From NCBI GenBank assembly GCA_045598005.1, contig JAZLLF010000021.1:19952-51951 (forward strand): a stretch of 32,000 nt of DNA, read 5' to 3'. The position numbers were made by a program, and so were the translations under genes. How positions within the stretch are numbered: the stretch's first letter is position 1; each line of letters begins with the position of its first letter. Shown piece after piece: positions 6,721-29,511 of the stretch. The notes under the pieces are model-generated. The model worked only from the letters and a program-made list of their open reading frames with translations, was not told where the DNA came from and did not search any database. This DNA is from Saccharofermentans sp. (GTDB lineage: Bacteria; Bacillota; Clostridia; Saccharofermentanales; Saccharofermentanaceae).

Positions 6721-6746
6721 GATGTTGGAAATAATTGAGATATAAT
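6717..6746 (+). promoter_or_regulatory. candidate sigma-A promoter of the large cluster (-35 TTTAGA, 18-nt spacer, -10 TATAAT)
   Basis: TATAAT at 6741-6746 and TTTAGA at 6717-6722. Downstream are RBS GGGAGG at 6766-6771 and ATG at 6780. Confidence 0.4.
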
Positions 6747-6779
6747 AGTAGAAGGGCACATCTTTGGGAGGTTTGTTTT

Positions 6780-9145: not shown

Positions 9146-9158
9146 GGTCGGAGGATTT

Positions 9159-12100: not shown

Positions 12101-13259
12101 GCTGGCAATTGAGAAGAATAATACCAAGCTTTCTGGTTTGTTCAGGGATACAGGCATTTATAGTTCATATGCTTCTTACTATTTTGATTCTTTCAATATG
12201 GTTTTTGAAGATTTAAACGGTGCAGACTTTTTGAAATATATTTCAAAGCGTCCACATTTTACTATTTCTGAAGCTTTGTCCTTCAGACGTGCATCAAATA
12301 TTAAGAGCAACCATCCGGAATTTTATAACGATTATAAAGATCTCTGGAAGATGTATAGTAAACACCGCTCCTCCTGGATTGAGCTCAACAGTATTCTTGC
12401 TTCTTATTCTGATGTTAATGATGTAATTGTAACTTTTAATCTTGATGATTATTCAGCTTCAAAGGCAGATAATTTTGCATACATTGTTCCTCAGTACTGT
12501 TCACGAAATCTTGTAAGACTTCTTGTAAAACTTAAAAGAGCCGGGGTAATTTCAAAGGAAAGCAGCGTAACCGGATATACCAGTGATTCCTGCCATGTAA
12601 ATATCGTTGGCGACATTAAGCTTAAGGCAAAATTCGATGTAATTTTTGCGAACTGCTACTGCTTTGCAATAGATAACATGCTTAACGTAAAGAAGATTTC
12701 CGATAGTAAGGTGTCAGTGATTTACGATGATCTTTCTGTAAGAAACCTCGATATTTCTTCCTGCGAAAGCAAGATCATGCTGATTCTTAAGTACCTTGAG
12801 GAGAAGAGTTATATTAACTGTCTTAATGCTGAAGATAATAAGAAAGTAAGTTTTACTTATTCCACATCAGTCATTAAGAGATTCCTTAAAGATTCTGATG
12901 CCATGCTTCAGATCTATACATACCATAGCGTTAAGGAATTAACGAGTGTGGACGATATCTTAAGCAGTTACGAACTTAAATCAAGAAGTGATGATCCTTT
13001 AAGAGAAATCGATCTTGTAATAACAAAAGGTTTCAGAATGGTATTTGTTGAGTGTAAATCCGAAGGTGTATCGGAGGAAGAGGTACTTAACAAACTGAAT
13101 ACTCTTGTTCAAAGCGTTGGTACAAACGCAACCGCAGTTCTTATTACTGATGGTAAGGTTAAGAAGGGACTAAAGAGCGATACGGTTATTATTTCGAAGA
13201 AGGACGAGATTAATAGTATCAGTAGTACACTTATGAAGATTATTAATAGTGAATACTGA
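9159..13259 (+). CDS. multidomain Ser/Thr protein kinase fused to a Rossmann-like/RyR-like module and a Card1/Can2-like CARF + PD-(D/E)xK nuclease-like module
   Basis: Hanks-type kinase motifs: G-loop IGDGAMAVAY, catalytic loop HRDIKPSN (H190-D192, nt 9726-9734), DID for DFG, TEPE for APE, DIYSIGATLF. Downstream motifs: GLGNYG and EHRRW..GW. C-terminus has EID(1285)-x12-E(1298)CK(1300). GGAGGA lies just upstream of the ATG. Confidence 0.85.
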   Translation: MKERTYIKNEILLCSLIDGEKSRKKFRIVKKIGDGAMAVAYEAYSDGTSGFGVLHEFYPKDSIILTRRSDNQLVVTDGFDEAINRLERDKEKYVSSYLKLAEVIRNNPDNNLSVHLPVFEIYYGCDEDKNIIGTTYIWTPEQKLETYEKVCQDIHRHPSSSPEFKLVSALKAIESLAEATLDLHMAGFIHRDIKPSNFGFTLSHDTIKTDSFKLFDIDSMCRSIQRRVDYVVVSEGFTEPEMRASIPQRPSVQTDIYSIGATLFYSIIITPETKATDYRYSDDYYDRIDELVASSSLISSSESNSHPKLRHILAKILKKSLAKRSARYEKCEDLIEDIKTAIYYALPGELSSRNKRGVKVIYDDVKSEFDKFSIKNSSMVLINHLYEVPFYRSLDKSMEDINILVVGLGNYGQKFIDICLQAGQMIGKRIRITAVSSDALDSRIYLEERPELENFFNIDGRNPAPDSYGDINFVTYNFDPDNYDANPKAVRKNTESFVTGFKDTFVYAFIALGNDEINSAASRGINKAYDKLGKEITISYVNEKKEDIGLINDRKNIFAVNINAPLKSFRYNDEIERMGFNMHLLWEKNLNVDFREVYKAYNDLYNHTSCVCGVLALKYKLFSIGINLDELSFEEASEKFLSEDVSDELIYLEHRRWVTEKICAGWSKRPVEMAFNGATRDKKLKNHICIVKSDSNQNLKRNFTDKGLRTWDEATDEELNTLDELDRMSVELHRGYVKKAKAIDVSGLLSGHLYTKMYSLIESDKDALAAFQEWFSCVKEICIDLPENAARKIKLYRSLKDAFVMAANNSYVESLVNEFNKAVEPILLSREYRDFKQDDTVMIMNTPFILTFTEKTTLAIPYEFNDKSQVFDNISAPCMVNPNRIVYFVLIEKNEDIPSFRETLNGTISFMKKKNITSSIDLFIAYDKTNGFNLNRAFEKAVIEDGYGLIKSVKRFPYSDIDSVLTEIRKYIDKRKSGRNQLAIEKNNTKLSGLFRDTGIYSSYASYYFDSFNMVFEDLNGADFLKYISKRPHFTISEALSFRRASNIKSNHPEFYNDYKDLWKMYSKHRSSWIELNSILASYSDVNDVIVTFNLDDYSASKADNFAYIVPQYCSRNLVRLLVKLKRAGVISKESSVTGYTSDSCHVNIVGDIKLKAKFDVIFANCYCFAIDNMLNVKKISDSKVSVIYDDLSVRNLDISSCESKIMLILKYLEEKSYINCLNAEDNKKVSFTYSTSVIKRFLKDSDAMLQIYTYHSVKELTSVDDILSSYELKSRSDDPLREIDLVITKGFRMVFVECKSEGVSEEEVLNKLNTLVQSVGTNATAVLITDGKVKKGLKSDTVIISKKDEINSISSTLMKIINSEY
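10350..11240 (+). other. domain: Rossmann-like (VVGLGNYG) + RyR-like (LEHRRWVTEKICAGW...KNHICIV) module inside the kinase gene
   Basis: By eye it aligns block by block with residues ~312-616 of the next-but-one gene: INILVVGLGNYGQ / ISVIINGLDNYGS; FIALGNDEIN / FTSLGSDTAN; YLEHRRW / RIEHDRW. Confidence 0.6.
11725..13259 (+). other. domain: DUF1887/Card1-Can2-like region (CARF-like Rossmann, wHTH-like segments, PD-(D/E)xK core)
   Basis: The C-terminal stretch QIYTYHSVKE...REIDLVITKGFRMVFVECKSEG...LNKLNTLVQSVGTNATAVLIT matches my recollection of the DUF1887 nuclease consensus (E.D-x(n)-ECK, then a conserved G and a hydrophobic strand). Confidence 0.5.
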
Positions 13260-15635: not shown

Positions 15636-17147
15636 ATGTCTTATCGTAAAAACTTGATTTGCTCTATTGCATTGATGATTATCTGCTCTGTTCTTGTATC
15701 ATGTGCAGGCACTCTTAATACCAAACTCGACAGAGATGGTAATCCTATTGATGAGAGTTCTGAAAGTATAACTTCAGAATCTGAAACATCTGAGACTACT
15801 TCTAGTACTACTACTTCAGAGACTACAACCAGCACTTCTGAATCTACTACTGAAACCAGTGAAACGTCAGAAACTTCTGAACCTGAAGATCCTACCCCAA
15901 CACCTATAGATCCAAATAATCTGCCTGAATACTATAATCTTGTGGAACTTGGATATACTCCACCAGTAGAAAATCAAAGTGCATATGGTTCATGTCAGAG
16001 TGAAACATTTACAACAATTATGGAAAGCCGACTTCTTGTTCAGGGAATACAGTCTGATATTTCAGAGTGGGCATTTTTCCATTGTCTGAATCACTATGGA
16101 TTCCATTATAGCTATGTTGGTGAGTCATCTCTGATAGCAGATGGTTATGCAGCTATTATTCCTGAATCTGCTGCTCCATATCCTGATGATTTTGTTTATG
16201 GTGATCGTACTGAAGGATATGTTCTTCCTGATCAGTATGTAAATCACCAGGATTATTCTGTAACAGATATTTATTACTTATCTGATGAATACATGAGTAA
16301 TGATGAGATTATTGAAGTAGCAAAGACATGGCTTTATAGAAACTATGCACTTGGTGCAAGTTTTGATTTCAGCGAAGAAGCATTTGATTTATATATGTCT
16401 TCTGATCAGCAGTCTTACTACTGCACAGATTCTCACAGAACGATTAATCATATGATGACTATCGTTGGATATGATGACAATTATCCAAAGGAGAATTTTA
16501 AGAGCACTCCATCACGCGATGGTGCTTTTCTTGTTCAGAATAGCTGGGGTACTGATTATTGGAATGGAACTGGCTTCTTCTGGATTTCTTATGATGACGC
16601 AATGATGTCAGACTTTGATCTGTTTACAGTAGAGGTTGTTTCAGGTGACAGTTACGACTATGTGGATTATTACGATGTAAATGCTCACTGGTCAGACTAT
16701 ACAGCTTCACTTAGTTCTTCATCTTCAACATGTGGAATTAAATTTCATGCGGATAATGCGCTTGATCTTGATGCAGTTGGAATTTATACAACAGTTCCAA
16801 ATGAGAGTTTTCAAGTTTATCTTGATGTATCTGGAAATATGGAACAGACAGTTCTTGTTGCTGAAGGAACAAGGCAGGATCGTGGTTTTTATCGTATTGA
16901 ACTGAATGATGTGTACCATATTGATGCAGGGACAGATTATTCGTTTGTAATTGTATACACGGGTCAGGTTGGTGAATATCTTATCCCTATGGACTGGATT
17001 TTTACTGCCAGTGCTGCATCTGATTTAACAATTGGTAGAACTTCGGGTGTAACTTTCGTATATATGAATGGTTCCTGGAGAGATATTACTTCTCTTGGTG
17101 ATCAGTACGGTAATATCTGTTTCAAAGTTTATGGACACAGGTCTTAA
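15636..17147 (+). CDS. secreted lipoprotein, papain-like (C1 family) cysteine peptidase with Ser/Thr/Glu-rich linker
   Basis: Lipobox LVSC (Cys23) after a basic/hydrophobic N-terminus. C1 catalytic blocks: QSAYGSCQSETF (Cys), NHMMTIVGYDD (His), VQNSWGTDYWNGTGFFWISYD (Asn-Ser-Trp-Gly). Confidence 0.75.
   Translation: MSYRKNLICSIALMIICSVLVSCAGTLNTKLDRDGNPIDESSESITSESETSETTSSTTTSETTTSTSESTTETSETSETSEPEDPTPTPIDPNNLPEYYNLVELGYTPPVENQSAYGSCQSETFTTIMESRLLVQGIQSDISEWAFFHCLNHYGFHYSYVGESSLIADGYAAIIPESAAPYPDDFVYGDRTEGYVLPDQYVNHQDYSVTDIYYLSDEYMSNDEIIEVAKTWLYRNYALGASFDFSEEAFDLYMSSDQQSYYCTDSHRTINHMMTIVGYDDNYPKENFKSTPSRDGAFLVQNSWGTDYWNGTGFFWISYDDAMMSDFDLFTVEVVSGDSYDYVDYYDVNAHWSDYTASLSSSSSTCGIKFHADNALDLDAVGIYTTVPNESFQVYLDVSGNMEQTVLVAEGTRQDRGFYRIELNDVYHIDAGTDYSFVIVYTGQVGEYLIPMDWIFTASAASDLTIGRTSGVTFVYMNGSWRDITSLGDQYGNICFKVYGHRS
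15753..15905 (+). repeat. coding low-complexity S/T/E(P) linker (imperfect GAAAC(N)TCTGA-type DNA repeats)
   Basis: Translates as ESSESITSESETSETTSSTTTSETTTSTSESTTETSETSETSEPEDPTPTP, lying between the lipobox and the peptidase domain. Confidence 0.6.
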
Positions 17148-17174
17148 GTGATATTAATTTTGGGTGAGATTTTT

Positions 17175-19319
17175 ATGAGAAAGTTTAAGGATATTTGTTT
17201 AAAAACTGTAGCGAGTCTGATTTCTGCTTTTATAGGATTGTCCGTTTATTCTGGAGTGTCAGGTAATTTTGTTGCTGCAGATCCAGTTGACACTATTTCA
17301 CGTGCTATTAATGTTGTTTATGATGATTCTGACAGCATGTATTTTTGTGGTGGTACTGAAGGATATGATGTAGATACATGGTGCCAGGCCAAGTATTCAA
17401 TGGAAGTATTTGCTGCCATGCTTGGCGCAAATGATACCATGAATATTTATTACATGAGTGATTATGACGAATCTGAATCTGCACCTGCAAGAATCAGTAT
17501 TTCAGGTAGTGATGATGTATCTGAAAATATTTCAAAGATTCATAATGAGACAACTACACCTGGTGGAACATCCTTGAATTCAATCCGTAAGGCTTGCTCT
17601 GATCTTGAATCAGCATCTGCTGATGAGAAGTGGCTTGTTGTTCTTACTGACGGTGTAATTGATGATAATCCTGTTTCTACCACTTTTGTAAATGAGTATT
17701 TCCATGGAAAATCAGATGATATAACTGTTTTGTTCCTTGCTATTGGTGAGTATTCAAGAACAATTATGACAGAACCTAATTATGGTATTTATAGTTTCCT
17801 TGCTAATTCAAACGATGAGATTTTCGATTATGTAATGCTTATGTGTAACTGGATCTATAGTGCCAATACACTTGATGTAAATGTTTCTACAGGTGAGTTT
17901 TCCACAGATCTTCCTTTGAAGCAGGTAATTGTATTTGCTCAGGGTGAAGATGTAACAGTTAACGGTATCGGTGCTTTGGAGCCTGACAGAGATGTTCAGA
18001 TTAATTATAGTGAATGTGATGCTGTAACACGTGATAATGAACCTGATACTTCACTTCACGGTACTGTTGCAACATTTATAAGTTCATTTGATCCAGGCAC
18101 ATATACTATTGATGCTACAAATGCTGAAACACTTCAGGTTTACTTTGTTCCTGATGTGGATATTATGGTTTCATTTACTGATACAAATGGAAATTCTGTT
18201 ATTAATGCTTCTGAACTTGAAGCAGGTTACTATAATTATGAGATTTCTCTTGTAAGAGGTGGGACTAACGAAGTAATTACTAATTCGACACTTCTTGGAG
18301 AACTTGCTTATTCTGTTAATGTGACAATCGGAGATTATGCAATCAGATATAATGATCCATCAGGCTCTATTCAGCTTGCAGGTGGAGACACTGAACTTGA
18401 GTTCCGTGTTAAGTTTTTGGGCTACAGCCAGGTGTCTTTGACTCATTCATACGTTGTAAATGTTCCTGAGGTTGTTTCTGGTAACAGCACTATTACTTTC
18501 GAAGTTGTTGATAATCCTGTTTTTGATGTGTCTTCAGAGGGCATTACTACAGGCGAAGGAATTAAGATTCATGCACTTATCAATGGACGTGAATTTACTC
18601 AGAGTGAATGGGATTTCCTGGATGTTCCAGTTATTACTTTTGGTAATGATGTAAATAACTTAAAACTTACTCCAACTATGCTTACTAAGAGTGACGAATT
18701 AGGAATTTTTGTTCTTGTTCCAACACTTGATGGTGAGCCTTCTTCATCATCTTATAAGGAATTAACTTATTCTATTTCAATTTCACAAAGTGCAGGTGAA
18801 CTTCAGACCTGGGAAGGCTCAATGGAAGGAAAGATTGAGTTTAATGATTTAAGAAGCTTTGGCGATCGTAATACCAGAGCAATCATCACTACTGTAGTTA
18901 TTGTTCTTTTGTTAGCATTTGCCATGCTTTATATGCCTTTTATTAAGCATTACATGCCAGGCATGAGTAAGTATCCTAGAATTAATATTTCCAACTATGC
19001 TACAGGTTCAGATTCTATTTCAAAGGGCGAAGTAACTATTGATATTTTGAGTACTATCCTTCCTGTTGTTCCTCAGAAGGGTAATATTTCCTTTATTCCA
19101 AGTTCAGTACCAATTCCATCTTTCAGAGTTAAAGCTGTTGGTAATGGCAGAATGGAAATCGAGAACGTAAAGGATTTTGCAAAGTATAATATTAGTGTCG
19201 GATCAAAGAATCTCGCTGAAGAAGTTAGAGAAAATGAGGGCGTAAAGGTAACATTAGGAGCTTCAACTACAATTGATACTGTATATAGGAAGACAGATTA
19301 TACTTGTGTTTTGAAGTAA
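17175..19319 (+). CDS. vWA-domain membrane protein, paralogue 1 (signal peptide - vWA/MIDAS - beta-rich region - TM - cytoplasmic tail)
   Basis: N-terminal signal MRKFKDICLKTVASLISAFIGLSVYSGV. MIDAS D50-D-S52-D-S54 (nt 17322-17336), GGTSLNS and VVLTDG. TM AIITTVVIVLLLAFAMLYMPFI (~18879-18945), then a ~125-aa tail. ATG 17175 follows GGGTGAG. Confidence 0.8.
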   Translation: MRKFKDICLKTVASLISAFIGLSVYSGVSGNFVAADPVDTISRAINVVYDDSDSMYFCGGTEGYDVDTWCQAKYSMEVFAAMLGANDTMNIYYMSDYDESESAPARISISGSDDVSENISKIHNETTTPGGTSLNSIRKACSDLESASADEKWLVVLTDGVIDDNPVSTTFVNEYFHGKSDDITVLFLAIGEYSRTIMTEPNYGIYSFLANSNDEIFDYVMLMCNWIYSANTLDVNVSTGEFSTDLPLKQVIVFAQGEDVTVNGIGALEPDRDVQINYSECDAVTRDNEPDTSLHGTVATFISSFDPGTYTIDATNAETLQVYFVPDVDIMVSFTDTNGNSVINASELEAGYYNYEISLVRGGTNEVITNSTLLGELAYSVNVTIGDYAIRYNDPSGSIQLAGGDTELEFRVKFLGYSQVSLTHSYVVNVPEVVSGNSTITFEVVDNPVFDVSSEGITTGEGIKIHALINGREFTQSEWDFLDVPVITFGNDVNNLKLTPTMLTKSDELGIFVLVPTLDGEPSSSSYKELTYSISISQSAGELQTWEGSMEGKIEFNDLRSFGDRNTRAIITTVVIVLLLAFAMLYMPFIKHYMPGMSKYPRINISNYATGSDSISKGEVTIDILSTILPVVPQKGNISFIPSSVPIPSFRVKAVGNGRMEIENVKDFAKYNISVGSKNLAEEVRENEGVKVTLGASTTIDTVYRKTDYTCVLK

Positions 19320-19324
19320 ATATC

Positions 19325-21541
19325 ATGCGTAAAATCAAAGAATCATTTGTAAAAGTAACTATCTTTATTTTGACAGTAGCAGTTTTGTTTCCAGCTTTTT
19401 TGGGAATAACTGCTACGCCTGTACTTGCCGATTCCGGAAATGGCATTAACAGAGTAATTAATGTCGTATTTGATGATTCCGGAAGTATGTATTACGATGA
19501 TTTTTCCATTACATCTCTTAAAAGATGGAGTCAGGCGTTATATTCATTGGAAGTATTTGCAGCAATGCTTGGACCAAACGATACAATGAATGTCTATATG
19601 ATGAGTGATTTCAGTCCTTATAGCAGTACTGACTTAAGCGAAAGTGCTATCGCTGCATTATCCGGTCCTAACTTTGTTCTTCATGGTTCTTCAAGCAGCG
19701 AAACTAACATTCAGACAATACACAGATTTACAAGTTACAGTAATGGTACTCCTTTTACTACAGTTCGTAAGGCGTTATATGATCTTGAGCATACTTCTGC
19801 TGATGATAAGTGGCTTGTTGTACTTACAGATGGTACTTTTCAGGAAAATGGTGGCGATTATCTTGAGCAGTCAAGAGTTGACCAGTATATTCAGGATAAA
19901 TCAGATGATGTAAAAGTATGTTGCCTTGCTCTTGCAGATGGTACATTGAATCTTCCAACTCAGGTTGAGAGCCAGAACATCTTTTCAAGTGAAGCTAATT
20001 CAGGCCATGAGATTCTTGTAAAAATTACAGATATTATTTCAAGAGTTTTTAATTTGAATAAACTTCAGATTAATAATGATGCTGTCTCTTTTAATCTTCC
20101 TATGTCAGAGCTTATCGTATTTGCTCAGGGAAGTAATGTTAATATTGGAAATATTACAGATTCTTCCGGAGGAAACTATTCAGGGCAACAGGTTGATGTC
20201 AGCTATCGAGCTGAAAGTAATTCAACGAGATATCCTGAAGCTCCAACTGATGATACCCTGAGAGGCTGTGTTTCAGTTTGCAGAGGTGATTTTGTACCTG
20301 GTACTTATAATATTGATGTTTCAGGCGCAGATACTGTAGAAGTTTTCTATAAGCCAAATATTGATATTCTTATAACTGCAGAAGATCAGAATGGAAATGT
20401 ATATATAGCAGATTCAAGTGTTCCTTCTGGCCAGTACACAATTACATATACTCTTGTAAAGGGTGGAACAACTGAGCCAATTGAGGATACTTCACTTATT
20501 GATCCGATTAACTATACTGCAACTATTGATGGTAATACATTTCAAAATGGTGATACCGTTCAGTTGGAAGAAGGCGATCATGCAATTGTTGTAGAAGGTC
20601 GTTATCTGGAAATTAACAGAATTACAGCTGAAGTTAATTTGACATGTAACCTTACAGCAGTTCCTGTTACTTTCGAAGTTTCTTCTTCAGATCCATATGA
20701 AATTGGCGCAGATTCTGTAGATACATCAAATCCAATAACTGTTCATGCCAAAATTGACGGAAGGGAGTTTACTCCTGAGGAATGGGCAGCTATGGGAATT
20801 CCTGAGGTTACACTCACAAAGAATGCCAGCAAGTATAAGCTTGTTAATCCTTCAATAGTTAAGACTGATGATGTTGGATATTTCGAAGTGTATTTTGAAG
20901 TTAAGGGTGCGCCTGCTGATGCTCTTTATACTGAGGCTTTATTCCAGCTTTCATACTCTGAACAGTGTGTTGAGGGCGAGCTTTGGGAAGGTTCTTTTGA
21001 AGGAACTATTGAATTTGACGATGAGAGATCTTGGTACGACAGATATAAGGATAAGATTCTTCTTGCAATCATTATTGCAGTTATTCTTCTTATTATTTTG
21101 ATGTATATGCCATTTGTTAAGCATTATCTTCCAAAGATGAAGAAGTATCCTACAATTGAAATTGAGAACAGAGCGTTGTTCAAAAATTCAACTTCAAAGG
21201 GATCAGTTAAGAAAGATATACTTACAACAATCCTTCCACTTGTACCACAGACAGGTACAATTACGTACATACCTAAGACTTCAGCTGTACCAAAAACTGC
21301 TCCTTTACGTGTAAGAGCTGTAGGTAACGGCAGGATGATAATAACAAACCAGTCTGTATTCGAGCAGAAGGGATGTCCTGTATCCTTTAGTGGCCGTTCA
21401 CTTATCAAAGATGAGTTTGATGAAGAAGGTACACCTAACAGGAAGCGAAAGCCAAAACCATATATGATGTCAGCAGGAACAGTAATTGAAGTAGATTATG
21501 CAAAGAAAAGGGAATACTATTCCTGTTGTCCTAGAAGATAA
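19325..21541 (+). CDS. vWA-domain membrane protein, paralogue 2
   Basis: Same architecture as paralogue 1. Signal peptide ends ...PVLA/DS. MIDAS VVFDDSGSMY, NGTPFTT, VVLTDG. TM ILLAIIIAVILLIILMYMPFV. Tail ends YYSCCPRR. ATG 19325 chosen over tracked TTG 19304 by analogy with paralogue 1 (MRK...). Confidence 0.8.
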   Translation: MRKIKESFVKVTIFILTVAVLFPAFLGITATPVLADSGNGINRVINVVFDDSGSMYYDDFSITSLKRWSQALYSLEVFAAMLGPNDTMNVYMMSDFSPYSSTDLSESAIAALSGPNFVLHGSSSSETNIQTIHRFTSYSNGTPFTTVRKALYDLEHTSADDKWLVVLTDGTFQENGGDYLEQSRVDQYIQDKSDDVKVCCLALADGTLNLPTQVESQNIFSSEANSGHEILVKITDIISRVFNLNKLQINNDAVSFNLPMSELIVFAQGSNVNIGNITDSSGGNYSGQQVDVSYRAESNSTRYPEAPTDDTLRGCVSVCRGDFVPGTYNIDVSGADTVEVFYKPNIDILITAEDQNGNVYIADSSVPSGQYTITYTLVKGGTTEPIEDTSLIDPINYTATIDGNTFQNGDTVQLEEGDHAIVVEGRYLEINRITAEVNLTCNLTAVPVTFEVSSSDPYEIGADSVDTSNPITVHAKIDGREFTPEEWAAMGIPEVTLTKNASKYKLVNPSIVKTDDVGYFEVYFEVKGAPADALYTEALFQLSYSEQCVEGELWEGSFEGTIEFDDERSWYDRYKDKILLAIIIAVILLIILMYMPFVKHYLPKMKKYPTIEIENRALFKNSTSKGSVKKDILTTILPLVPQTGTITYIPKTSAVPKTAPLRVRAVGNGRMIITNQSVFEQKGCPVSFSGRSLIKDEFDEEGTPNRKRKPKPYMMSAGTVIEVDYAKKREYYSCCPRR

Positions 21542-21547
21542 GTTATA

Positions 21548-21580
21548 GCACCAGATTCAGTAATGGGTCTGGTGTTTTGC
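21548..21580 (+). terminator. rho-independent terminator between vWA paralogues 2 and 3
   Basis: CACCAGA (21549-21555), a 12-nt loop, TCTGGTG (21568-21574), then TTTT (21575-21578). Confidence 0.6.
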
Positions 21581-21687
21581 TTCCCCCTGAAATTGTTAGA
21601 TTTCTTTTTGCGCTAATATGTAGATACAAAAACAGGCATTTGCATGATTTGTTTAATTATTATTTACATTTAAAGTGGTTTTTCAAA

Positions 21688-21715
21688 GAAAACAGGAGCC
21701 TGAATTTTGTATAAT
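21688..21715 (+). promoter_or_regulatory. candidate promoter for vWA paralogue 3 / tubulin-like operon (TG-TATAAT)
   Basis: TGTATAAT at 21708-21715, about 65 nt upstream of ATG 21779. The -35 is weak (GAAAACA region). A similar module (AAAACAGG...TTTGTTTAAT) sits at 21628-21657. Confidence 0.3.
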
Positions 21716-21778
21716 TATTTACTGAGGATATATGTGTAATTATATTTTGTATCTTCATCAGGGAGCAGAGGGAACTTT

Positions 21779-24016
21779 ATGAACTATTCAGTATCTATTA
21801 ATCGTAAAAAATGTGCAGCACTGTTTGTTGTACTTATTTATACATTGATTTCTTTTGTCTGCATTACTATTCCTGCGGAAGATGTATTGGCAGTTCGTAC
21901 AGAACCAAATCGTGTGATTAATGTCGTATATGATGATTCCGGTAGTATGTACATTAATACTAATCGTTGGAGTCAGGCTCTTTATTCATTGGAAGTATTT
22001 GCTGCGATGCTTGGCGATAACGATACAATGAACGTTTATTACATGAGTAATTATTCAACAAACTCAGATACATTTGATTATACTGGTGATGTTTCTGGTT
22101 ATGAAGGTCCATCTCTTGTGCTTCATGGAAGCAGTGGAGCAGAGAATAATGTAGCTGCTGTTCATAACAGAATTACTCAGAATGCTACAGGTACTCCTTG
22201 GGCAGCTGTAAGAAAGGCTCAGTATGATCTTGAGAATACATCAGCAGATGAGAAGTGGCTTGTAATTCTTACTGATGGTGCTTTCGAAGATGGAAGTATT
22301 CCTGTTTCAGATATGGACATGTATTTGAATCAGAAGTCAGATGATATTAGTGTTGTCTGTCTTGCTCTTGCAAATGTATCATCAACTCCTACAAACAATG
22401 AGGCAAATAATATTTATGTAGATACTGTTTCTGGATCAGAAAGTATTTTAAGTAAGATTACAGATGTAATTACAAGAGTATTTAATTCAAATAAGCTTCC
22501 AAATATTAGTAATAATAGTGTTTCTTTTGGACTTCCAATGAGTGAACTCATTGTATTTGCACAGGGTGCAGATGTTGAGATTAATGGAATTTCTGATTCA
22601 AATGGAAATTCATATTCAGCACGTCCAGTAGATGTAATCCATAGAGACGATTCGAATGCGGCTAACTATCGAAATGCTACTACAGATACTTCTCTTAAAG
22701 GTCAGCTTGCTATTTTCCGTGGCGATTTTAATCCAGGTACATATAATTTTGATGTTACTGGAGCTCAGACACTTGAAGTATTCTATAAGCCAAATGTTGA
22801 GATTATGGCTTTCCTTACTGATCCTGTAACAGGTGAAGAGATACCTGCAGATTCAGCTATTTATCCAGGTACATACACAGTTGAGTTTGTATTTGTTAAG
22901 GCTGGTACAACAGAGAAGGTTGAAGATATTTCACTTATTGAGCCAGTTGAATATTATGCAACATTCGATGGAAATACAGAGATTTCAAGTGGTGATACTG
23001 TTGAGATTGATATAGGTAATCACTCAATTCATGCTGAAGCGAGATTCCTTGACTATAACGTAGTAGAGACAGATATTGATGTTGTTTGTACTGCTGAACC
23101 AACAAACACTCCAACACCTACACCTGAAGGTTCTGTAATACCAGTAACTTTTGAGGTTATCAGTAGTGATGATTATGTGGTAAGCGAAGATTCAGTTGAT
23201 ACTTCAGAGCCAATTATAGTTCATGCTCTTCTTGATGGAAGAGAGTTCACATCTGAAGAGTGGGCACTCATGACAGAACCGGAAATTGAGCTTACAACTA
23301 ATGCCAGAAAGTATAAGCTTACAAATCCTCAAATTACAAAGCTCGATACAATTGGAGATTTTGAAGTAACATTTGAAGTTAATGGCGCTCCAGCAGATGA
23401 CACTTATGATTCAGCAGTATTTAGTCTTACATATCGTCAGGAAATTGATGAATGGACTACATGGGCAGGCGATTATGAAGGCGATATTAATTTTAGCGAT
23501 GATCGTTCGTGGTTAGAAAGATATAAAGATAAGTTAATTGCTGGCATAATTATCGGTCTTGCAGCTCTTCTCATTCTTTTATATATGCCATTCATTAAGC
23601 ATTATCTTCCTAAGATGAAGAAGTACCCAACTGTTGAGATTGATGATCGCGCTATTTTTAAACAGTCGACTTCAAAGGGAGCAGTCAAGAAAGATATATT
23701 AACTACAATTCTTCCTTTGATTCCACAGACAGGAACAATTAATTATCTTCCATCGACTGCGTCAGTTCCAAAGACAGCCCCTCTTAAAGTTAAGGCTGCT
23801 GGTGGCGGAAAGATGATAATTACAAATCAGTCAGTATTTGAACAGAAGGACTGTCCTGTAACGTTCAGTGGACGCACACTTGTGAAAGATGATTTTGATG
23901 TAGATAACACAAAGAAGAAGCGTAAATCGAAGCCATATTATCTTACAGGTGGCACAGTGATTGAAGTTGATCATACGAAGAAGAAGATAACATATTCATG
24001 TTGTCCAAAAAGATAA
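21779..24016 (+). CDS. vWA-domain membrane protein, paralogue 3
   Basis: Very similar to paralogue 2: NRVINVVYDDSGSMY, RWSQALYSLEVFAAMLG, WLVILTDG. It has an extra TNTPTPTPEG linker. TM LIAGIIIGLAALLILLYMPFI. Tail ends TYSCCPKR. RBS is GAGGGA. Confidence 0.8.
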   Translation: MNYSVSINRKKCAALFVVLIYTLISFVCITIPAEDVLAVRTEPNRVINVVYDDSGSMYINTNRWSQALYSLEVFAAMLGDNDTMNVYYMSNYSTNSDTFDYTGDVSGYEGPSLVLHGSSGAENNVAAVHNRITQNATGTPWAAVRKAQYDLENTSADEKWLVILTDGAFEDGSIPVSDMDMYLNQKSDDISVVCLALANVSSTPTNNEANNIYVDTVSGSESILSKITDVITRVFNSNKLPNISNNSVSFGLPMSELIVFAQGADVEINGISDSNGNSYSARPVDVIHRDDSNAANYRNATTDTSLKGQLAIFRGDFNPGTYNFDVTGAQTLEVFYKPNVEIMAFLTDPVTGEEIPADSAIYPGTYTVEFVFVKAGTTEKVEDISLIEPVEYYATFDGNTEISSGDTVEIDIGNHSIHAEARFLDYNVVETDIDVVCTAEPTNTPTPTPEGSVIPVTFEVISSDDYVVSEDSVDTSEPIIVHALLDGREFTSEEWALMTEPEIELTTNARKYKLTNPQITKLDTIGDFEVTFEVNGAPADDTYDSAVFSLTYRQEIDEWTTWAGDYEGDINFSDDRSWLERYKDKLIAGIIIGLAALLILLYMPFIKHYLPKMKKYPTVEIDDRAIFKQSTSKGAVKKDILTTILPLIPQTGTINYLPSTASVPKTAPLKVKAAGGGKMIITNQSVFEQKDCPVTFSGRTLVKDDFDVDNTKKKRKSKPYYLTGGTVIEVDHTKKKITYSCCPKR

Positions 24017-24056: not shown

Positions 24057-27000
24057 ATGAACGCACCAACACTATTGATCGGTCTGGGTGGTACAGGAAG
24101 CAAGATTATTTCAAAAGTATCTGCAATGGTATCTCCAGAGGAGAGAAACAATATCTCATTTGCTGTATTTGATACAGATATTAATGAGCTACGTGTAATT
24201 CAGGAAACACATCCATTTATTAAGACAATTCAGACATCTACACGTCAGGCTGTAGGTGAGTATCTTAATATTGATACACATGCCAGAGATACATGGTTCC
24301 CAGTTAATGGAATTCTTAATGGTAAGGCTCTTTCAGAGGGAGCTGGACAGGTAAGATCTATTTCAAGACTTGCTCTTGAGACTGCAATCAGATCAGGTAA
24401 GATGGAGCCACTTCATGAGGCTGTTCAGGAGCTTTATAAGGTTGAGGAAGATAAGCAGGAGCAGGCTTTAAGAGTTGTAATTGTAAGTTCTCTTGCTGGT
24501 GGTACTGGTTCAGGACTTATTCTTCCAGTAGCTTTATATGTTAGAAATTATCTTAAGACTCACTTCCGTTTGAGCGCTAACATTACACGTGGTTTCTTTA
24601 TTCTTCCAGAAGTATTCTATGGTGTAATTAAGGGACCAACAGAGAGAAATAATCTTAAGGCAAATGCTTATGCTGCAATCAGAGAGCTTGATGCATTCCT
24701 TATGAAGAATGACGATACTCTCCACGAGAGATATAAGGATTCAGTTGCTATTCACTTCCCTAAGGTAGCTTCTGAAGGTTATGAAGAGTATGACGTAAGA
24801 CCTTATGATTTCTGCTTCCTCTTTGATGCTCAGAACGCTGAAGGTGGAAAGCTCAATTCATTTGATCAGTATTTGGATCACGCCGCTAACTGTATCTACG
24901 CTCAGTCAATTGGACCTATGAATAAGCGTAGTAACTCTTCTGAGGATAATACAATCCGTAAGCTTGCTAAGGAGCATGGCCGTAACAGATATGCTGGTGC
25001 TGGTGTATCTATGCTTGTATATCCATTTGAAGACATTAAGAAGCTCTTTGCTCTTAAGTGGGCTAAGCAGAGTGTTTCTTCTTTGTGGCTTAAGTACGAT
25101 AACCTCTATAAGGAGTACGTAAAGGACAGAGCTTCTCTTCGTGAGGAGGGTCTTTCAATTGGTGATAACCAGACACTTGCAGAGTACTATGTAAGTCAGG
25201 TTGAGTCTGATAATGCTGCTGATGTACCTTTTGCAAGAGCAATCTATGTTGCATCTGGTAACTACCGTAATGGTGTTACACGTGAGACAGATAAGTGGGA
25301 TATGTACGTTGCTGAACTTATGAATAAGATTGGTGAGGACATTTCTTCTACTGCTTCAAGCCTTGATTCACGTGCAAGAGACGTTAGATCACGTATTAAT
25401 GAGCTTGGTCAGGATAAGGACTGGTCAACATTTATTACTGTTTATAACGATATGCAGGAGTACGCGCTCCTTTCAGAGCAGTATGTAACAAATGTTTCTC
25501 AGACAATTGCACATTCACTTTTCAGAGGATCACATACAAGTGGTGCTAATAACTGCGAGCAGCCATATAAGCTTGAGTACTATATCGCTCCAGAAGGAAA
25601 GTACATGCATCCAAACGCTGCAAGATATCTCCTTATCAAGATTCTTGAGCGCATGAAGGAAACAAAGATGTCTGTAGAGCAGGGCAAGGTAAAGAGCAAG
25701 AAGTTCTTTGAGACATTCGAAAAGAATACTTTCGATGATACAAAGACAGATGCTGAGGAGACAGTTGATGATCTCGCTAGAAGAAAGAAGTCTCTTAATA
25801 CTAAGGCTGATATGACTCAGATGGCAGATGACTTCTCTAACTACCTTACAATTGTTAAAAAGTATCAGGCACAGTGTGCTCAGGATTACGTACTCATGAA
25901 GGGTATCGAATATATTGAAACACTTATCAATTCTTATGAGCAGTTCTTTATGTCTTTCGAGAGCAAGGTTGAAGGCATGGATAAGGAAATTGCAAATATT
26001 TATAAGAAGTATAGTGATACTAAGGGTACAACTGTAAGATACGTATCTGCCAGCAAGGATTGCCTTGATAAGATGTACGAAAAGAAGCCTTACACAGGTG
26101 GTGTTGTTTCTATCGATTCAAAGCTTGCACAGACAATTTATGATCAGGTTCTTGAGTATTCACTCTTAAGAGAGAAGCCAAATGCTAACAGATACTTCAA
26201 TAAGCTCTTCGATGATGGCATTATTGGATACTTCGAGGATAGCGTTATGAACAGCTACGGTGCTGAACTTGATATTGATGCTATTACTGCTTTGCAGAAC
26301 GAAGCTGATTATATTGGTGGTTTTGATGATGCTGATGATGCTGATAAGCTCATTATTCAGTATGTTAAGAAGGTAATCGAGGATACAAGAAAGCTTGCTT
26401 GTCCATTTATTGAGAGACCTCTTGGTGAGACAACAGATCCAATTAACTCATGTACATTTAATAAGTCACTTAAGCCTGATAAGGGTGATGAGTCACCTAT
26501 CTCACAGATTATCAGAAGTGAACTTCTTGATTACGGCGGAGAGGCTGATGAGGATGTACCAAGAAAGATGATTATGTTCTATTCTTCTTTCTATGGTTTG
26601 AGAGCTAATGATCTTAGTAAGTTTGCTCCACCTGAGAAGACAGAAACATATAACAGAACTGGCGGTGAATACTTCAAGGCTTACTTCGATCTTATTCAGG
26701 GAATCCACCCATCTTCACAGAAGAGTAAGGGAATTTCTCCACACTGTGATCGTTGGTGGCATATCATTACAAAGATGCCAGATCTTGATGAAGAGAATCA
26801 GGCTAAGCAGGAGTATGATATCTATTCTGCATTCTTCTGGGCTTTCTACTACAGATTTGTAAGCCTTAAGAGTGAGAATAATAAGCAGATTTATAAGTTC
26901 TCAAAGCTCCTTCTTGATATGGATGATGACACTCTTATCGTTTCTAACGGTACAGATTGTGACAAGTTCTACGAGGTTCTTGACGCTATTGCTATCTATC

Positions 27001-27515
27001 CAGAGCTTACAGCTAAGATTCTTAGTAAGGTAAATAGTGATCTTGCTGACGATATTGATGAAGGTGTATCACTTGAGGAATCTTATTTCATGACTCAGCT
27101 TGCTAACTTTGAGATTGATGAGCCACTTCTTGGTGCCAAGGAGACAAAGTCTCATTGTATCTTTGATATTCCACTTCTTATGAAGAAGTCAGCTACACCT
27201 GACATCTATTACGAAGAGGATGTTGTAAACATGCTGAAGGTTTCAATCCAGGAGATTAAGCGTTATATTTCTAACTTCTGTTCTCCAAGTGATTTACCTG
27301 TAGCTGTAAAGACAGTTATCCTTGATCAGTTCGCTAAGCATCTTGAGTCACTTAAGATTGAAGCTAAGTCAAACAAGCTTGTTTATACAGAGCCACTCTT
27401 CGAGAAGACATGTGATGTTATTTATAACGCACTTTATGAGATCGATTGTAAGAGAGATGCTCGTAAGATTTATGAGACAATGCAGAATCTTAAGAGACAG
27501 TCAGCACAGGACTAA
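24057..27515 (+). CDS. giant tubulin/FtsZ-superfamily GTPase-like protein (Pfam Tubulin_2-like, from memory)
   Basis: N-terminal LLIGLGGTGSKI (T1-like G-rich loop, nt 24081-24101), FAVFDTD (compare FtsZ NTD) and SSLAGGTGSGLILP (tubulin signature GGGTGSG-like, A147-G153, nt 24495-24515). About 900 further residues have no TM. Strong RBS AAGGAGG. Confidence 0.75.
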   Translation: MNAPTLLIGLGGTGSKIISKVSAMVSPEERNNISFAVFDTDINELRVIQETHPFIKTIQTSTRQAVGEYLNIDTHARDTWFPVNGILNGKALSEGAGQVRSISRLALETAIRSGKMEPLHEAVQELYKVEEDKQEQALRVVIVSSLAGGTGSGLILPVALYVRNYLKTHFRLSANITRGFFILPEVFYGVIKGPTERNNLKANAYAAIRELDAFLMKNDDTLHERYKDSVAIHFPKVASEGYEEYDVRPYDFCFLFDAQNAEGGKLNSFDQYLDHAANCIYAQSIGPMNKRSNSSEDNTIRKLAKEHGRNRYAGAGVSMLVYPFEDIKKLFALKWAKQSVSSLWLKYDNLYKEYVKDRASLREEGLSIGDNQTLAEYYVSQVESDNAADVPFARAIYVASGNYRNGVTRETDKWDMYVAELMNKIGEDISSTASSLDSRARDVRSRINELGQDKDWSTFITVYNDMQEYALLSEQYVTNVSQTIAHSLFRGSHTSGANNCEQPYKLEYYIAPEGKYMHPNAARYLLIKILERMKETKMSVEQGKVKSKKFFETFEKNTFDDTKTDAEETVDDLARRKKSLNTKADMTQMADDFSNYLTIVKKYQAQCAQDYVLMKGIEYIETLINSYEQFFMSFESKVEGMDKEIANIYKKYSDTKGTTVRYVSASKDCLDKMYEKKPYTGGVVSIDSKLAQTIYDQVLEYSLLREKPNANRYFNKLFDDGIIGYFEDSVMNSYGAELDIDAITALQNEADYIGGFDDADDADKLIIQYVKKVIEDTRKLACPFIERPLGETTDPINSCTFNKSLKPDKGDESPISQIIRSELLDYGGEADEDVPRKMIMFYSSFYGLRANDLSKFAPPEKTETYNRTGGEYFKAYFDLIQGIHPSSQKSKGISPHCDRWWHIITKMPDLDEENQAKQEYDIYSAFFWAFYYRFVSLKSENNKQIYKFSKLLLDMDDDTLIVSNGTDCDKFYEVLDAIAIYPELTAKILSKVNSDLADDIDEGVSLEESYFMTQLANFEIDEPLLGAKETKSHCIFDIPLLMKKSATPDIYYEEDVVNMLKVSIQEIKRYISNFCSPSDLPVAVKTVILDQFAKHLESLKIEAKSNKLVYTEPLFEKTCDVIYNALYEIDCKRDARKIYETMQNLKRQSAQD

Positions 27516-27552: not shown

Positions 27553-29511
27553 ATGTATTCTGTACTTATTCAGAATCAGAGAACAATGGATTTGTTTAAT
27601 GATTTCCAGCCATTGTTTTCTGAAGCATTAAATGATGACAGAATAGGTGTATGTAAGTGGTTTGAAAATGGAACCACTATTGACACAGCACTTCCTGAAA
27701 TTAGAGATTTAACTGATGATAAAGAGGAATGGCGTGCCATTATCGTTAATGTTGTTGACGATAATGGTGTGTCCAGTTTCTCTTCAAGTGCGATTAATCC
27801 ATTTGATTTTGACATTAATAAGCTTCCTGATGACGGAGAAGATCATGACAATGATCCCGTTATTGAAAGTCCTGTTCCGCTAATTAGACTTACACATATG
27901 CTTGGTGGTTTCCCTGAGTTTGATGTTCGTTATGAAACTAAGGTAAAGCATGAGCATGGTAAGGCTGACAGAGATATTTATGTTGTGAAGGATTGTCCTG
28001 TTCGTGAGGCAACTCATGAGAAACTTGTTCGTAAATACAGATATAGTGGTAAGGCGCCTTCTTCTATTATTCTTGTAACAGTAAGAGAAAAACTCGAAGA
28101 GAACAGACATACTCTTAGTAAGCATTGGCTTAATCATATGGAATCTGATGCAGATGAGTTCTGGAAGCGTAATATGTATCCACATATTTGCCGTTTCCTT
28201 GTTTTTGATAAAGAAGACTCAGGACCAGTTCAGAAGGATGCTGATGATTTCAGATTCTGGTCATCGGTTGCTCTTCTTGCAACAAACGACATTGATGCAG
28301 GCGTTTTGCAGGCATATCGTCTTTATAATTTGAACGCTAGAATTAATCGTTCAAATATGGAAGAGTTTTTGCAGAATTACACAGACCGACTTCGTGATGC
28401 AAAGCGTGCTTTCGAGTATCAGATTAAAAGCGATATTAAGAATATGGTTTCCAAAGAGGAGACTTTGCCAGAAGATATTGAGATTAAGGTTCCTGTAGCA
28501 ATTAAGGTTCCCAAAATTGATGATATTGAGATTAAGTCCAAGTCTCTTCCTTTTCTTGCGGATAGCAGCAATATGGATATTCGCGTATGGAATGAGAGAA
28601 CTTCAAGAGCTGAAACTAATATGGCGAAGGCTGTTAAGGAAGCAGAAAGAACACTTGATCGTACTGTAAACAGAATGAGAAGTTCACTTGAGTATGATAA
28701 AGATGCTGTTGAGCCACTTAATAAGTATCAGGAAGAGGATCTTTCTGATCTTATCAGCAAGATTTATGCCAATATCGTAGATGTTCAGGGTCAGCTTCCT
28801 TCAAAGGATATTAACGAGGATAAAGAATTAAACAGGACATCAGAAAATGTACGTGAGTTCCTTAAGTCTCGTATAACAAAATCTGCTGCCGGTTTTACAC
28901 TTAGTGTTGTTGCTGGTCTTATGGTTTTATCTTTTATTCCTGCAATTATCTATTTCTTTGTTGATAAGAGGGGTTTCCCAGAGGTAGTTGGACTTACTTT
29001 CCTTTGCTCACTTCTTTTTGTTGCTCTTTGCGCTTTTATTGTTGTTCTTATTCAGAAACTTAAGTTGAAAGAACTTTTAAAAGCATATAATGAACAACTT
29101 AAACTTAAAATCAATAAGATGATGGGTAATGCAAGTATTTACTCTGAATATATTTCAAGTATTGCATCTCATACCAGAGGCAAGACTTATCTTGAGCATT
29201 CTTCAAATATTAAAACACTTGGAGATGATGTTCATAGCACTAAATATAAGCATATTACTGCTATTAACGCTCTTCTTAACAAGGTTAAAAAGTGGAATAA
29301 CGCATACCATCTTAAGGTTGATTTTGCTGCGGCACGACCTAATTACATGATAGAAGTTGATTCTTCTGTTAAGCCATCTGAAAACAGACTTTATCAGTTT
29401 GATTTTGGTAAGACATATTCAGTTGAAATTAATGATTCAGGTATGAATATTGAGGCACCTTTTAACTTTGTAAGTAACTTAGATATTGAAAGGGAGGAAC
29501 TGTATGGATAA
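27553..29511 (+). CDS. hypothetical protein with charged, probably helical region and C-proximal TM hairpin
   Basis: RBS GGAGGTGA. Two hydrophobic helices (AAGFTLSVVAGLMVLSFIPAIIYFFV and VVGLTFLCSLLFVALCAFIVVLIQ) sit about 200 aa from the C-terminus. A charged, heptad-like stretch precedes them. No motif recognised. Confidence 0.65.
   Translation: MYSVLIQNQRTMDLFNDFQPLFSEALNDDRIGVCKWFENGTTIDTALPEIRDLTDDKEEWRAIIVNVVDDNGVSSFSSSAINPFDFDINKLPDDGEDHDNDPVIESPVPLIRLTHMLGGFPEFDVRYETKVKHEHGKADRDIYVVKDCPVREATHEKLVRKYRYSGKAPSSIILVTVREKLEENRHTLSKHWLNHMESDADEFWKRNMYPHICRFLVFDKEDSGPVQKDADDFRFWSSVALLATNDIDAGVLQAYRLYNLNARINRSNMEEFLQNYTDRLRDAKRAFEYQIKSDIKNMVSKEETLPEDIEIKVPVAIKVPKIDDIEIKSKSLPFLADSSNMDIRVWNERTSRAETNMAKAVKEAERTLDRTVNRMRSSLEYDKDAVEPLNKYQEEDLSDLISKIYANIVDVQGQLPSKDINEDKELNRTSENVREFLKSRITKSAAGFTLSVVAGLMVLSFIPAIIYFFVDKRGFPEVVGLTFLCSLLFVALCAFIVVLIQKLKLKELLKAYNEQLKLKINKMMGNASIYSEYISSIASHTRGKTYLEHSSNIKTLGDDVHSTKYKHITAINALLNKVKKWNNAYHLKVDFAAARPNYMIEVDSSVKPSENRLYQFDFGKTYSVEINDSGMNIEAPFNFVSNLDIEREELYG

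Follow-up and report, generated by a model that had tools for sequence, protein, structure and literature searches.

What are three consecutive genes for von Willebrand factor A (vWA) domain proteins doing directly upstream of a gene for a cytoskeletal-type GTPase? This question is raised by a 32,000-nucleotide (nt) stretch of DNA from Saccharofermentans sp. (GenBank assembly GCA_045598005.1, contig JAZLLF010000021.1, positions 19,952 to 51,951), hereafter the window. The three vWA proteins are called P1, P2 and P3 in the order of their genes, and the GTPase is FtsZl1. We suggest that P1–P3 are paralogues, each a version of the membrane-anchored vWA subunit (receptor or adhesin) of a self-contained vWA-FtsZl1-B5-B12 cassette, a reading that we regard as moderately probable.

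Three tandem vWA paralogues

The G+C content of the window is ~36%, and its + strand carries almost all genes. Three co-directional open reading frames (ORFs) on this strand encode proteins of 714, 738 and 745 amino acids (aa), which bears out the tandem arrangement described in the initial annotation of this DNA:

17175-19319, + strand: P1, vWA paralogue, 714 aa from ATG; the open frame runs from a GTG at 17148
19325-21541, + strand: P2, vWA paralogue, 738 aa from ATG; the copy modelled with AlphaFold2
21542-21778: intergenic gap of 237 bp, the sole sizeable gap in the array, read from the sequence
21779-24016, + strand: P3, vWA paralogue, 745 aa; the copy adjoining FtsZl1

An alternative start of P2, TTG at 19304, is the one used in the database protein entry. 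In full-length alignments P2 and P3 are 57% identical, and the identity of P1 to either of them is 36–37%; P1 is the most diverged of the three copies. The sequence blocks quoted earlier (RWSQALYSLEVFAAMLG, MSELIVFAQG and F.PGTY..D..GA.T.EVFYKPN) were all found in the proteins. P2 and P3 had been described as near-identical in many blocks, which is true of short blocks but not beyond them.

Within the gap between P2 and P3, upstream of the P3 Shine-Dalgarno sequence, a weak hairpin (ACCAGA...TCTGGT) precedes a T-rich tail (GTTTTG). Strong Shine-Dalgarno sequences precede P3, FtsZl1, B5 and B12, whereas the ribosome-binding sites of P1 and P2 are weak. P3 and the downstream genes may represent the ancestral transcription unit. 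A promoter scan gave as many matches as expected from shuffled sequence (61 versus 61.0), so it carries no signal.

Domain architecture and membrane topology

Each copy had been proposed to consist of a signal peptide, a vWA domain with a complete metal ion-dependent adhesion site (MIDAS), an immunoglobulin (Ig)-like stalk, a single transmembrane (TM) segment and a cytoplasmic part. Hydropathy, an AlphaFold2 model and Foldseek matches agree with this layout. Exactly two hydrophobic segments are present in each of P1, P2 and P3. The N-terminal segment (~19 residues) is preceded in each copy by three or four K/R residues and followed by VAA-D in P1, VLA-D in P2 and VLA-V in P3, the hyphen marking the inferred cleavage point. 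The second, TM segment lies at residues ~570–600 and is followed by a K/R-rich stretch. The net charge of the 545–555 aa between the two segments is –51 to –63, and the tail is basic. Because this charge pattern fits the positive-inside rule, the middle part is expected to be extracytoplasmic and the tail cytoplasmic. The N-terminal K/R residues, the acidic ectodomain and the basic tail predict that the vWA domain lies outside the cell, in line with the initial annotation.

The AlphaFold2 model of P2 was built on a 45-sequence alignment and has a mean predicted local distance difference test score (pLDDT) of 85.8. It comprises a helix at residues 2–25, a disordered linker at 27–39, an alternating beta/alpha domain at 43–241 (pLDDT ~90), an all-beta part at 245–566, a helix at 570–592 corresponding to the TM segment, and a beta-rich C-terminal domain at 610–738. 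We subdivided the stalk of P2 into three Ig-like domains, Ig1 to Ig3, at residues ~246–345, 346–443 and 444–568. The parts of P2 are as follows:

19325-19432, + strand: signal peptide or N-terminal anchor, residues 1–36, with a basic n-region, a hydrophobic helix and the VLA-D site
19442-20059, + strand: divergent vWA domain, residues 40–245
20060-21028, + strand: all-beta stalk, residues 246–568
21032-21112, + strand: single TM helix, residues 570–596 (from hydropathy and the model)
21113-21538, + strand: juxtamembrane motif F.KHYLPK.KKYP and beta-rich cytoplasmic domain, residues 597–738

Structure modelling and a Foldseek search, which had been proposed as a check on this layout, retrieved both vWA-containing and Ig-like structures. 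With the P2 model as query, the top matches in PDB were the pilus adhesin SpaC (6m48, E = 1.9e–10), the vWA protein 4fx5, Sec23/24 and TFIIH p44. Next came matches to the stalk, namely the Ig-like domains of PrgB, cadherins, SiiE and the Ig-like domain of LdtMt2.

The vWA domain and its MIDAS

The vWA fold, a central beta-sheet with flanking helices, is found in the AlphaFold2 model and agrees with the Foldseek matches. The MIDAS is intact in all three copies, with DDS[GD]S at residues 50–54 (P1 and P2) or 52–56 (P3), then GT[PS], and then LTDG at position 157 in P1, 167 in P2 and 164 in P3. In P1, the most diverged copy, these elements read DDSDS, GGTS and LTDG. D50, S52, S54, T142 and D169 (P2 numbering) are invariant in the 45-homologue alignment as well as in the three paralogues. 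The complete MIDAS proposed at the outset is thus kept in orthologues.

At the sequence level the domain is divergent and barely detectable as vWA. Pfam, NCBIfam and PADLOC family scans of the vWA proteins returned nothing significant: P2 matched VWA_2 at E = 0.04 (15 bits versus a cut-off of 27), and P1 and P3 had no Pfam match. Among 45 family members, VWA_2 was matched at E ≤ 0.01 in four, the best at 3e–4, and one homologue carries the NCBI name "VWA domain-containing protein". Sequence searches against PDB with the single protein, a full-length profile and a vWA-only profile gave nothing at E ≤ 0.1. The sole match of the vWA-only profile was the vWA domain of TRAP (E = 0.67); in this alignment the MIDAS threonine and LTDG line up. 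We therefore treat the vWA domain as a predicted one, assigned from structure prediction, the MIDAS motif and the literature assignment to COG2304.

The cytoplasmic domain and juxtamembrane motif

The cytoplasmic part had been taken for a short tail. It is in fact 127–142 aa long in the three copies and forms a confidently folded, beta-rich domain (pLDDT 88.9 and predicted template modelling score 0.82 when modelled alone). Foldseek found no relative of this fold in PDB or in BFVD (best E = 0.13 and 0.086, respectively). An FHA domain appeared at rank 19 with a probability of 0.28 and was rejected as a relative. Among 1.84 billion representatives the domain had 83 matches and was confined to the C-terminus of the vWA family, the 83 cluster representatives being proteins of ~600–980 aa or short fragments.

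The most conserved cytoplasmic positions are those of the juxtamembrane family consensus GY.PF.K.YLPK.LKK.P. Y594, K599, P603 and P609 (P2 numbering) are invariant in the 45-sequence alignment. The three copies end in YSCCPRR, YSCCPKR and YTCVLK. Together, the cytoplasmic domain and the juxtamembrane motif are the likely coupling point of the receptor.

A conserved four-gene cassette

Downstream of P3 the window encodes three further proteins on the same strand:

24057-27515, + strand: FtsZl1, a Tubulin_2-family GTPase of 1152 aa (Pfam PF13809, E = 4.5e–60)
27553-29511, + strand: "B5"-type protein of 652 aa, matching no Pfam family
29504-32000, + strand: "B12"-type large membrane protein, of which the N-terminal 832 aa are present, the gene being cut by the window end

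The cytoskeletal-type GTPase that had been noted beside the vWA genes is indeed a protein of the tubulin/FtsZ superfamily, as its Tubulin_2 match demonstrates; its gene begins 41 nt past P3, and GGTGS occurs at residues 11 and 148. B5, a putatively cytoplasmic protein, begins with ~440 soluble aa, continues with a TM hairpin (452–470 and 482–500) and ends in a C-terminal part of ~150 aa. The B12 ORF starts 8 nt before the end of B5, overlapping its stop. Over 821 aligned residues, B12 is 51% identical to its orthologue in Lachnoclostridium sp. An131 (locus L002, 17482-21771), which has 1429 aa and carries HELTH (at residue 1307) and CxxC near its C-terminus. We read B12 as a multi-TM protein whose C-terminus is a zincin-type HExxH domain.

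We scanned species-representative genomes for relatives of the vWA proteins. The family comprises at least 402 proteins at 330 species loci and is thus conserved elsewhere, although the closest relative outside the window's contig has an identity of no more than 42%. The loci belong mostly to Clostridia and also to Erysipelotrichaceae, Myxococcota, "Proteobacteria" metagenome-assembled genomes, Actinobacteria and Treponema. Eighty loci were kept for cassette counts, and the cassette was defined on them by tblastn and all-against-all ORF clustering. The vWA gene was present at all 80, Tubulin_2 at 71, B5 at 63 and B12 at 61, always in the same order and on one strand, with Tubulin_2 directly downstream of the vWA gene in 71/80. 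Absent cassette genes coincide with contigs that end early.

Upstream of the cassette, the gene content is heterogeneous. The two nearest upstream genes at 60-odd loci account for 113 proteins and 123 Pfam families, and the most frequent family, WCX/WYL-domain regulators, supplies just 5 of the 113 proteins; no other neighbour recurs. This heterogeneity indicates that the cassette is self-contained, and a defence-island context was rejected on the same ground. The P-loop motif G....GK[ST] is absent from the vWA proteins, FtsZl1, B5 and the N-terminal part of B12. Pfam and NCBIfam scans found no GTPase family in the cassette besides Tubulin_2, although very divergent GTPases might escape them. 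The three proteins scanned against PADLOC-DB 2.0 (the vWA protein P2, FtsZl1 and B5) had no match at E ≤ 0.01.

An origin in a mobile element or phage was also considered and rejected. A plasmid collection contained no match, and the sole match in a phage collection, MT836542.1 (L081), is an unannotated human-faecal contig of 9794 bp labelled "UNVERIFIED: Bacteriophage sp.", which provides no evidence for such an origin. It encodes a vWA gene with 27–29% identity followed by an FtsZl1 gene with 52% identity, and probably represents bacterial DNA deposited under a phage label.

Age and divergence of the three copies

No second vWA copy was found at any of the 80 loci, 56 of which have more than 2.3 kb of upstream sequence and could show a tandem. 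The triplication is hence lineage-specific, since 0/56 informative loci hold a tandem copy. In a neighbour-joining tree the (P1,P2,P3) clade has 99% and the (P2,P3) clade 100% bootstrap support, with long-branch attraction possible. Synonymous divergence (dS) between the copies has reached saturation at ~1.2 and does not vary along the genes, which marks the duplications as old. A recent strain-specific duplication without conservation elsewhere had been named as an outcome that would undermine the initial annotation; the triplication is restricted to this lineage, it is old, and the family is widespread.

Divergence had been said to be concentrated in the ectodomains. This is the case for P2 and P3, with a nonsynonymous divergence (dN) of 0.43 in the ectodomain versus 0.19 in the cytoplasmic part (identity 54% versus 72%), but P1 differs from P2 or P3 almost evenly (0.66–0.67 versus 0.59–0.60). 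Gene conversion as the cause of the conserved 3' cytoplasmic part was rejected, because dS is uniform along the gene. Between paralogues dN/dS is below 1 everywhere (~0.15–0.5, with dS saturated) and gives no sign of positive selection.

Single-copy orthologues show a different distribution. Their vWA, Ig1 and Ig2 domains are best conserved (~47–61%), and Ig3 and the cytoplasmic domain least (28–40%). This suggests a conserved ligand together with fast co-evolving membrane-proximal and cytoplasmic contacts. To place the paralogues on this scale, we restricted the comparison to species pairs with 50–60% FtsZl1 identity and expressed each copy as the number of standard deviations (SD) from the orthologue mean (z):

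vWA: orthologues 56±6% identity; P1, P2 and P3 45, 44 and 48%; z –1.9, –2.1 and –1.4
Ig2: orthologues 47±8%; P1, P2 and P3 32, 31 and 38%; z –1.8, –2.0 and –1.1
Ig3: orthologues 28±6%; P1, P2 and P3 28, 26 and 25%; z –0.0, –0.3 and –0.5
Cytoplasmic domain: orthologues 34±5%; P1, P2 and P3 27, 29 and 30%; z –1.3, –1.0 and –0.7

By these sequence comparisons, the distal ectodomain appears to have sped up after duplication, and the copy adjoining FtsZl1 appears to have changed least. P3 is also the copy nearest to the single-copy orthologues in every ectodomain part. An effect of ~2 SD with dN/dS below 1 is compatible with sub- or neo-functionalisation of ligand binding or with relaxed constraint. 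The diversification of ligand specificity proposed earlier is accordingly one of two readings: the pattern is compatible with it, but relaxed constraint fits equally and positive selection was not seen.

In five other lineages (L025, L048, L050, L070 and L071) the orthologues reach 820–980 aa (for example P0003, 967 aa), and the membrane-proximal stalk is repeated. In these lineages the stalk varies by domain duplication, not by gene duplication.

Relation to published systems

The link between vWA and cytoskeletal-type GTPase genes was already published in 2010 by Makarova and Koonin (PMC2875224), who defined the FtsZl1 family (Tubulin_2 in present-day Pfam). In their account the majority of FtsZl1 operons contain a gene for a vWA protein; many of these proteins have a signal peptide or TM segments, and the MIDAS is intact in most. 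The authors predicted a function in membrane remodelling. In their supplementary file 5 the locus of R. lactaris comprises RUMLAC_01529 (vWA, 732 aa), RUMLAC_01528 (FtsZl1, 1136 aa), RUMLAC_01527 ("B5", 678 aa) and RUMLAC_01526 ("B12", 1418 aa); B12 is described there as a membrane zincin with a Zn finger. In B. anthracis the corresponding pair is BA_3638 (vWA, 730 aa) and BA_3637 (FtsZl1, 1156 aa). A reviewer of that paper noted signal peptides in three checked FtsZl1-linked vWA proteins, including BT9727_3336 of B. thuringiensis. The window matches this cassette in gene order and sizes (vWA ~700, FtsZl1 ~1140, B5 ~650–680 and B12 ~1400 aa), in the intact MIDAS, and in having the vWA gene beside a co-directional FtsZl1 gene followed by B5 and B12; the match was judged by gene order and length, not by sequence identity to the named proteins. 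It differs in carrying the vWA gene three times in tandem, whereas 80/80 sampled loci are single-copy. A 2023 survey treated Tubulin_2 as divergent, sparsely distributed FtsZ-like sequences and used them only as a tree root.

Kaur, Burroughs, Iyer and Aravind (2020, PMC7159879) described GTPase-centred systems in Firmicutes and Actinobacteria, read as conflict systems, in which tubulin-domain proteins occur with a membrane protein bearing an extracellular vWA domain. Their GAP1-N2 systems share with the window a tubulin-superfamily gene beside an extracellular-vWA membrane protein, and some variants add a kinase and PP2C. Unlike them, the window cassette shows no GAP1/DO-type GTPase, no FNIII-repeat protein and no second tubulin gene, in whose place stand B5 and B12.

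The best structural match, SpaC of L. rhamnosus GG (PDB 6m48), likewise joins an extracellular vWA domain with a MIDAS to Ig-like beta-sandwich domains. Sequence identity to it is ~10%, however, and the window proteins do not have its LPXTG/sortase anchoring (the LPxTG motif is absent from P1, P2 and P3) but instead have a TM helix, a cytoplasmic domain and linked cytoplasmic partners.

The initial annotation had likened the three proteins to integrin receptors. The analogy with integrin alpha-I receptors holds as a purely formal one: an extracellular MIDAS vWA domain, a stalk, a single TM segment and a cytoplasmic part beside a cytoskeletal-superfamily protein. It fails in the details. The vWA domain of the window proteins is N-terminal and followed by Ig-like domains only, with no beta-propeller matches and no alpha-beta heterodimer partner. 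No NPxY/NPx[YF] or GFFKR motif was found in the three tails, which are folded domains, and the partner is a tubulin-superfamily protein, in contrast to the actin/talin system of integrins. The anthrax-toxin receptors ANTXR1/2 consist of a signal peptide, a vWA domain, an Ig-like domain, a TM segment and an actin-linked tail, and by analogy of domain order they would be closer formal counterparts than integrins. For both integrins and ANTXR the comparison shows no homology beyond the vWA superfamily.

Genes upstream of the array

The genes upstream of P1 do not accompany the cassette at the sampled loci, with one partial exception:

6735-8435: 566-aa ORF, upstream of PP2C, with no family found
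8459-13259, + strand: PP2C (228 aa), then a Ser/Thr kinase of 1366 aa
13291-15491, + strand: stand-alone RyR protein of 111 aa (E = 6.6e–33), then a 616-aa protein
15636-17147, + strand: predicted lipoprotein of 503 aa, with an LVSC lipobox and an S/T/E-rich linker

The C-terminus of the 1366-aa kinase matches a Card1-like PD-(D/E)xK endonuclease domain, and the PADLOC models PD-T4-6, MkoA and CARF_PDDEXK were matched; PP2C and this kinase-nuclease form a candidate defence or signalling module. The 616-aa protein begins with three TM segments and matches RyR weakly at its C-terminus. Its homologues (30–32% identity) lie upstream of the vWA gene at 2/80 loci (L006, 7499-9274; L046, 7994-9772), and this RyR-domain membrane protein may be an occasional accessory gene. 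The 503-aa lipoprotein contains a papain-family C1 peptidase (E = 4.5e–12) and a lectin-like domain (E = 6e–15), and its gene stops 1 nt ahead of the P1 open frame. The 566-aa protein, PP2C, the kinase-nuclease, the 111-aa RyR protein and the papain-like lipoprotein were found at 0/80 loci.

Possible roles of the vWA proteins

If P1–P3 are the receptor or adhesin subunit of the cassette, the MIDAS would engage an acidic group on a ligand outside the cell, probably a protein or material of the cell envelope. This event would be relayed by the TM helix and the cytoplasmic domain to FtsZl1, B5 and B12 on the cytoplasmic side of the membrane, where GTP-dependent FtsZl1 assembly and the B12 peptidase would generate the output, possibly membrane remodelling or a stress or immune response. 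Coupling could alternatively run inside-out, as adhesin clustering. The receptor gene would have been duplicated twice long ago, with three copies now feeding one shared cytoplasmic machinery, and the greatest divergence in vWA and Ig2 suggests a wider or subdivided range of ligands. Several points weigh against this reading. The vWA assignment stays below significance in sequence searches, whether by Pfam or by PDB profile, and the topology is deduced from hydropathy and charge. That the cytoplasmic domain physically couples to FtsZl1, B5 or B12 is deduced from gene order alone, and no experimental study of any cassette member was found in the searchable literature. The excess ectodomain divergence amounts to ~2 SD with dS saturated, so that relaxed constraint explains the numbers equally well, and the ribosome-binding sites of P1 and P2 are weak compared with those of P3 and the downstream genes. 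A more specific version, in which signalling is outside-in as in integrins or ANTXR, the cytoplasmic domain directly controls FtsZl1 polymerisation, and a repertoire of three receptors serves one cytoskeletal output, would be unlikely.

What the receptor is for may be narrowed by supposing that the cassette serves surface surveillance, as an immune or conflict system. The vWA-Ig ectodomain would sense phage or invader components or envelope damage, FtsZl1 would be an NTP-dependent assembly switch, the B12 zincin the effector, and the triplication a trace of an arms race. Such a role would refine the receptor reading and does not contradict it. Related tubulin-domain systems with extracellular vWA have been read in this way (Kaur et al. 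2020, PMC7159879), and the patchy spread over Clostridia, Erysipelotrichaceae, Myxococcota, Actinobacteria and Treponema with differing genomic surroundings, the PP2C and kinase-nuclease genes in the window with their PADLOC matches, and the few WYL/WCX regulators upstream of other cassettes all point the same way. On the other hand, the scanned cassette proteins match no PADLOC model, the cassette has neither a GAP1-type GTPase nor a P-loop motif, and mobile-element collections yielded just the unverified "phage" contig. Moreover, single-copy orthologues are most conserved in the distal ectodomain (~56–61%), contrary to the pattern expected of an arms-race sensor, and dN/dS is below 1; we consider an immune role possible but doubtful. 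The similarity to SpaC raises the alternative of plain surface adhesins for host mucus, collagen, glycans or other cells, comparable to the vWA tip adhesins of Gram-positive pili, with FtsZl1, B5 and B12 merely positioning, clustering or processing them and three copies providing three specificities in gut or rumen. The intact MIDAS, the acidic ectodomain, the predominance of gut and rumen Clostridia among source genomes and the secreted papain-like peptidase with a lectin-like domain encoded directly upstream would fit. A passive adhesin, however, needs neither a conserved folded cytoplasmic domain nor an invariant juxtamembrane motif, and the window proteins have no LPXTG sorting signal. The strict association with three cytoplasmic or membrane proteins, kept across phyla and also in the non-host-associated Myxococcota and Nanopelagicales, speaks for a machine rather than a host-specific adhesin, which leaves plain adhesion with little weight.

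The number of copies admits a further explanation, namely that two of them are redundant duplicates under relaxed constraint and that P3 alone works with the machinery. The proximity of P3 to single-copy orthologues, its strong Shine-Dalgarno sequence, the gap that sets it apart from P2, and the excess divergence of P1 and P2, which is compatible with relaxed selection, would all be expected in this case. Yet the three frames have stayed intact over more than 2.1 kb each despite saturated dS, and the MIDAS, the TM helix, the juxtamembrane motif and 42 C-terminal positions identical in all three copies have been retained. The low dN/dS implies continued purifying selection, and we find redundancy improbable. 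Least probable by far is the reverse topology, with a cytoplasmic vWA domain that binds peptides of cytoplasmic partners as in MoxR-vWA and TerY systems. Many prokaryotic vWA domains do act inside the cell (Kaur et al. 2020, PMC7159879), but in P1–P3 the basic residues ahead of the first hydrophobic segment and the V-x-A site after it, the acidic middle part and the basic segment following the second TM helix all speak for the opposite orientation. So do the Ig-like stalk and the SpaC-like match, which are typical of extracytoplasmic proteins, and the signal peptides that a reviewer of Makarova and Koonin (PMC2875224) found in FtsZl1-linked vWA proteins.

Significance

FtsZl1 systems were recognised by comparative genomics in 2010, and the literature searched assigns them no function or mechanism. 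What sets the window apart is the old, lineage-specific tandem triplication of the receptor or adhesin gene of a catalogued cassette. The locus defines a minimal, self-contained four-gene version of the FtsZl1 (Tubulin_2) system and places its vWA domain, by prediction, outside the cell on an Ig-like stalk. It also constitutes a natural experiment in which three receptors with diverged vWA and Ig2 domains and conserved cytoplasmic parts face one GTPase. If the coupling is not real, the array would represent a lineage-specific expansion of an uncharacterised surface protein; if it is, it would reveal a bacterial signalling axis from receptors to a tubulin-like cytoskeleton.

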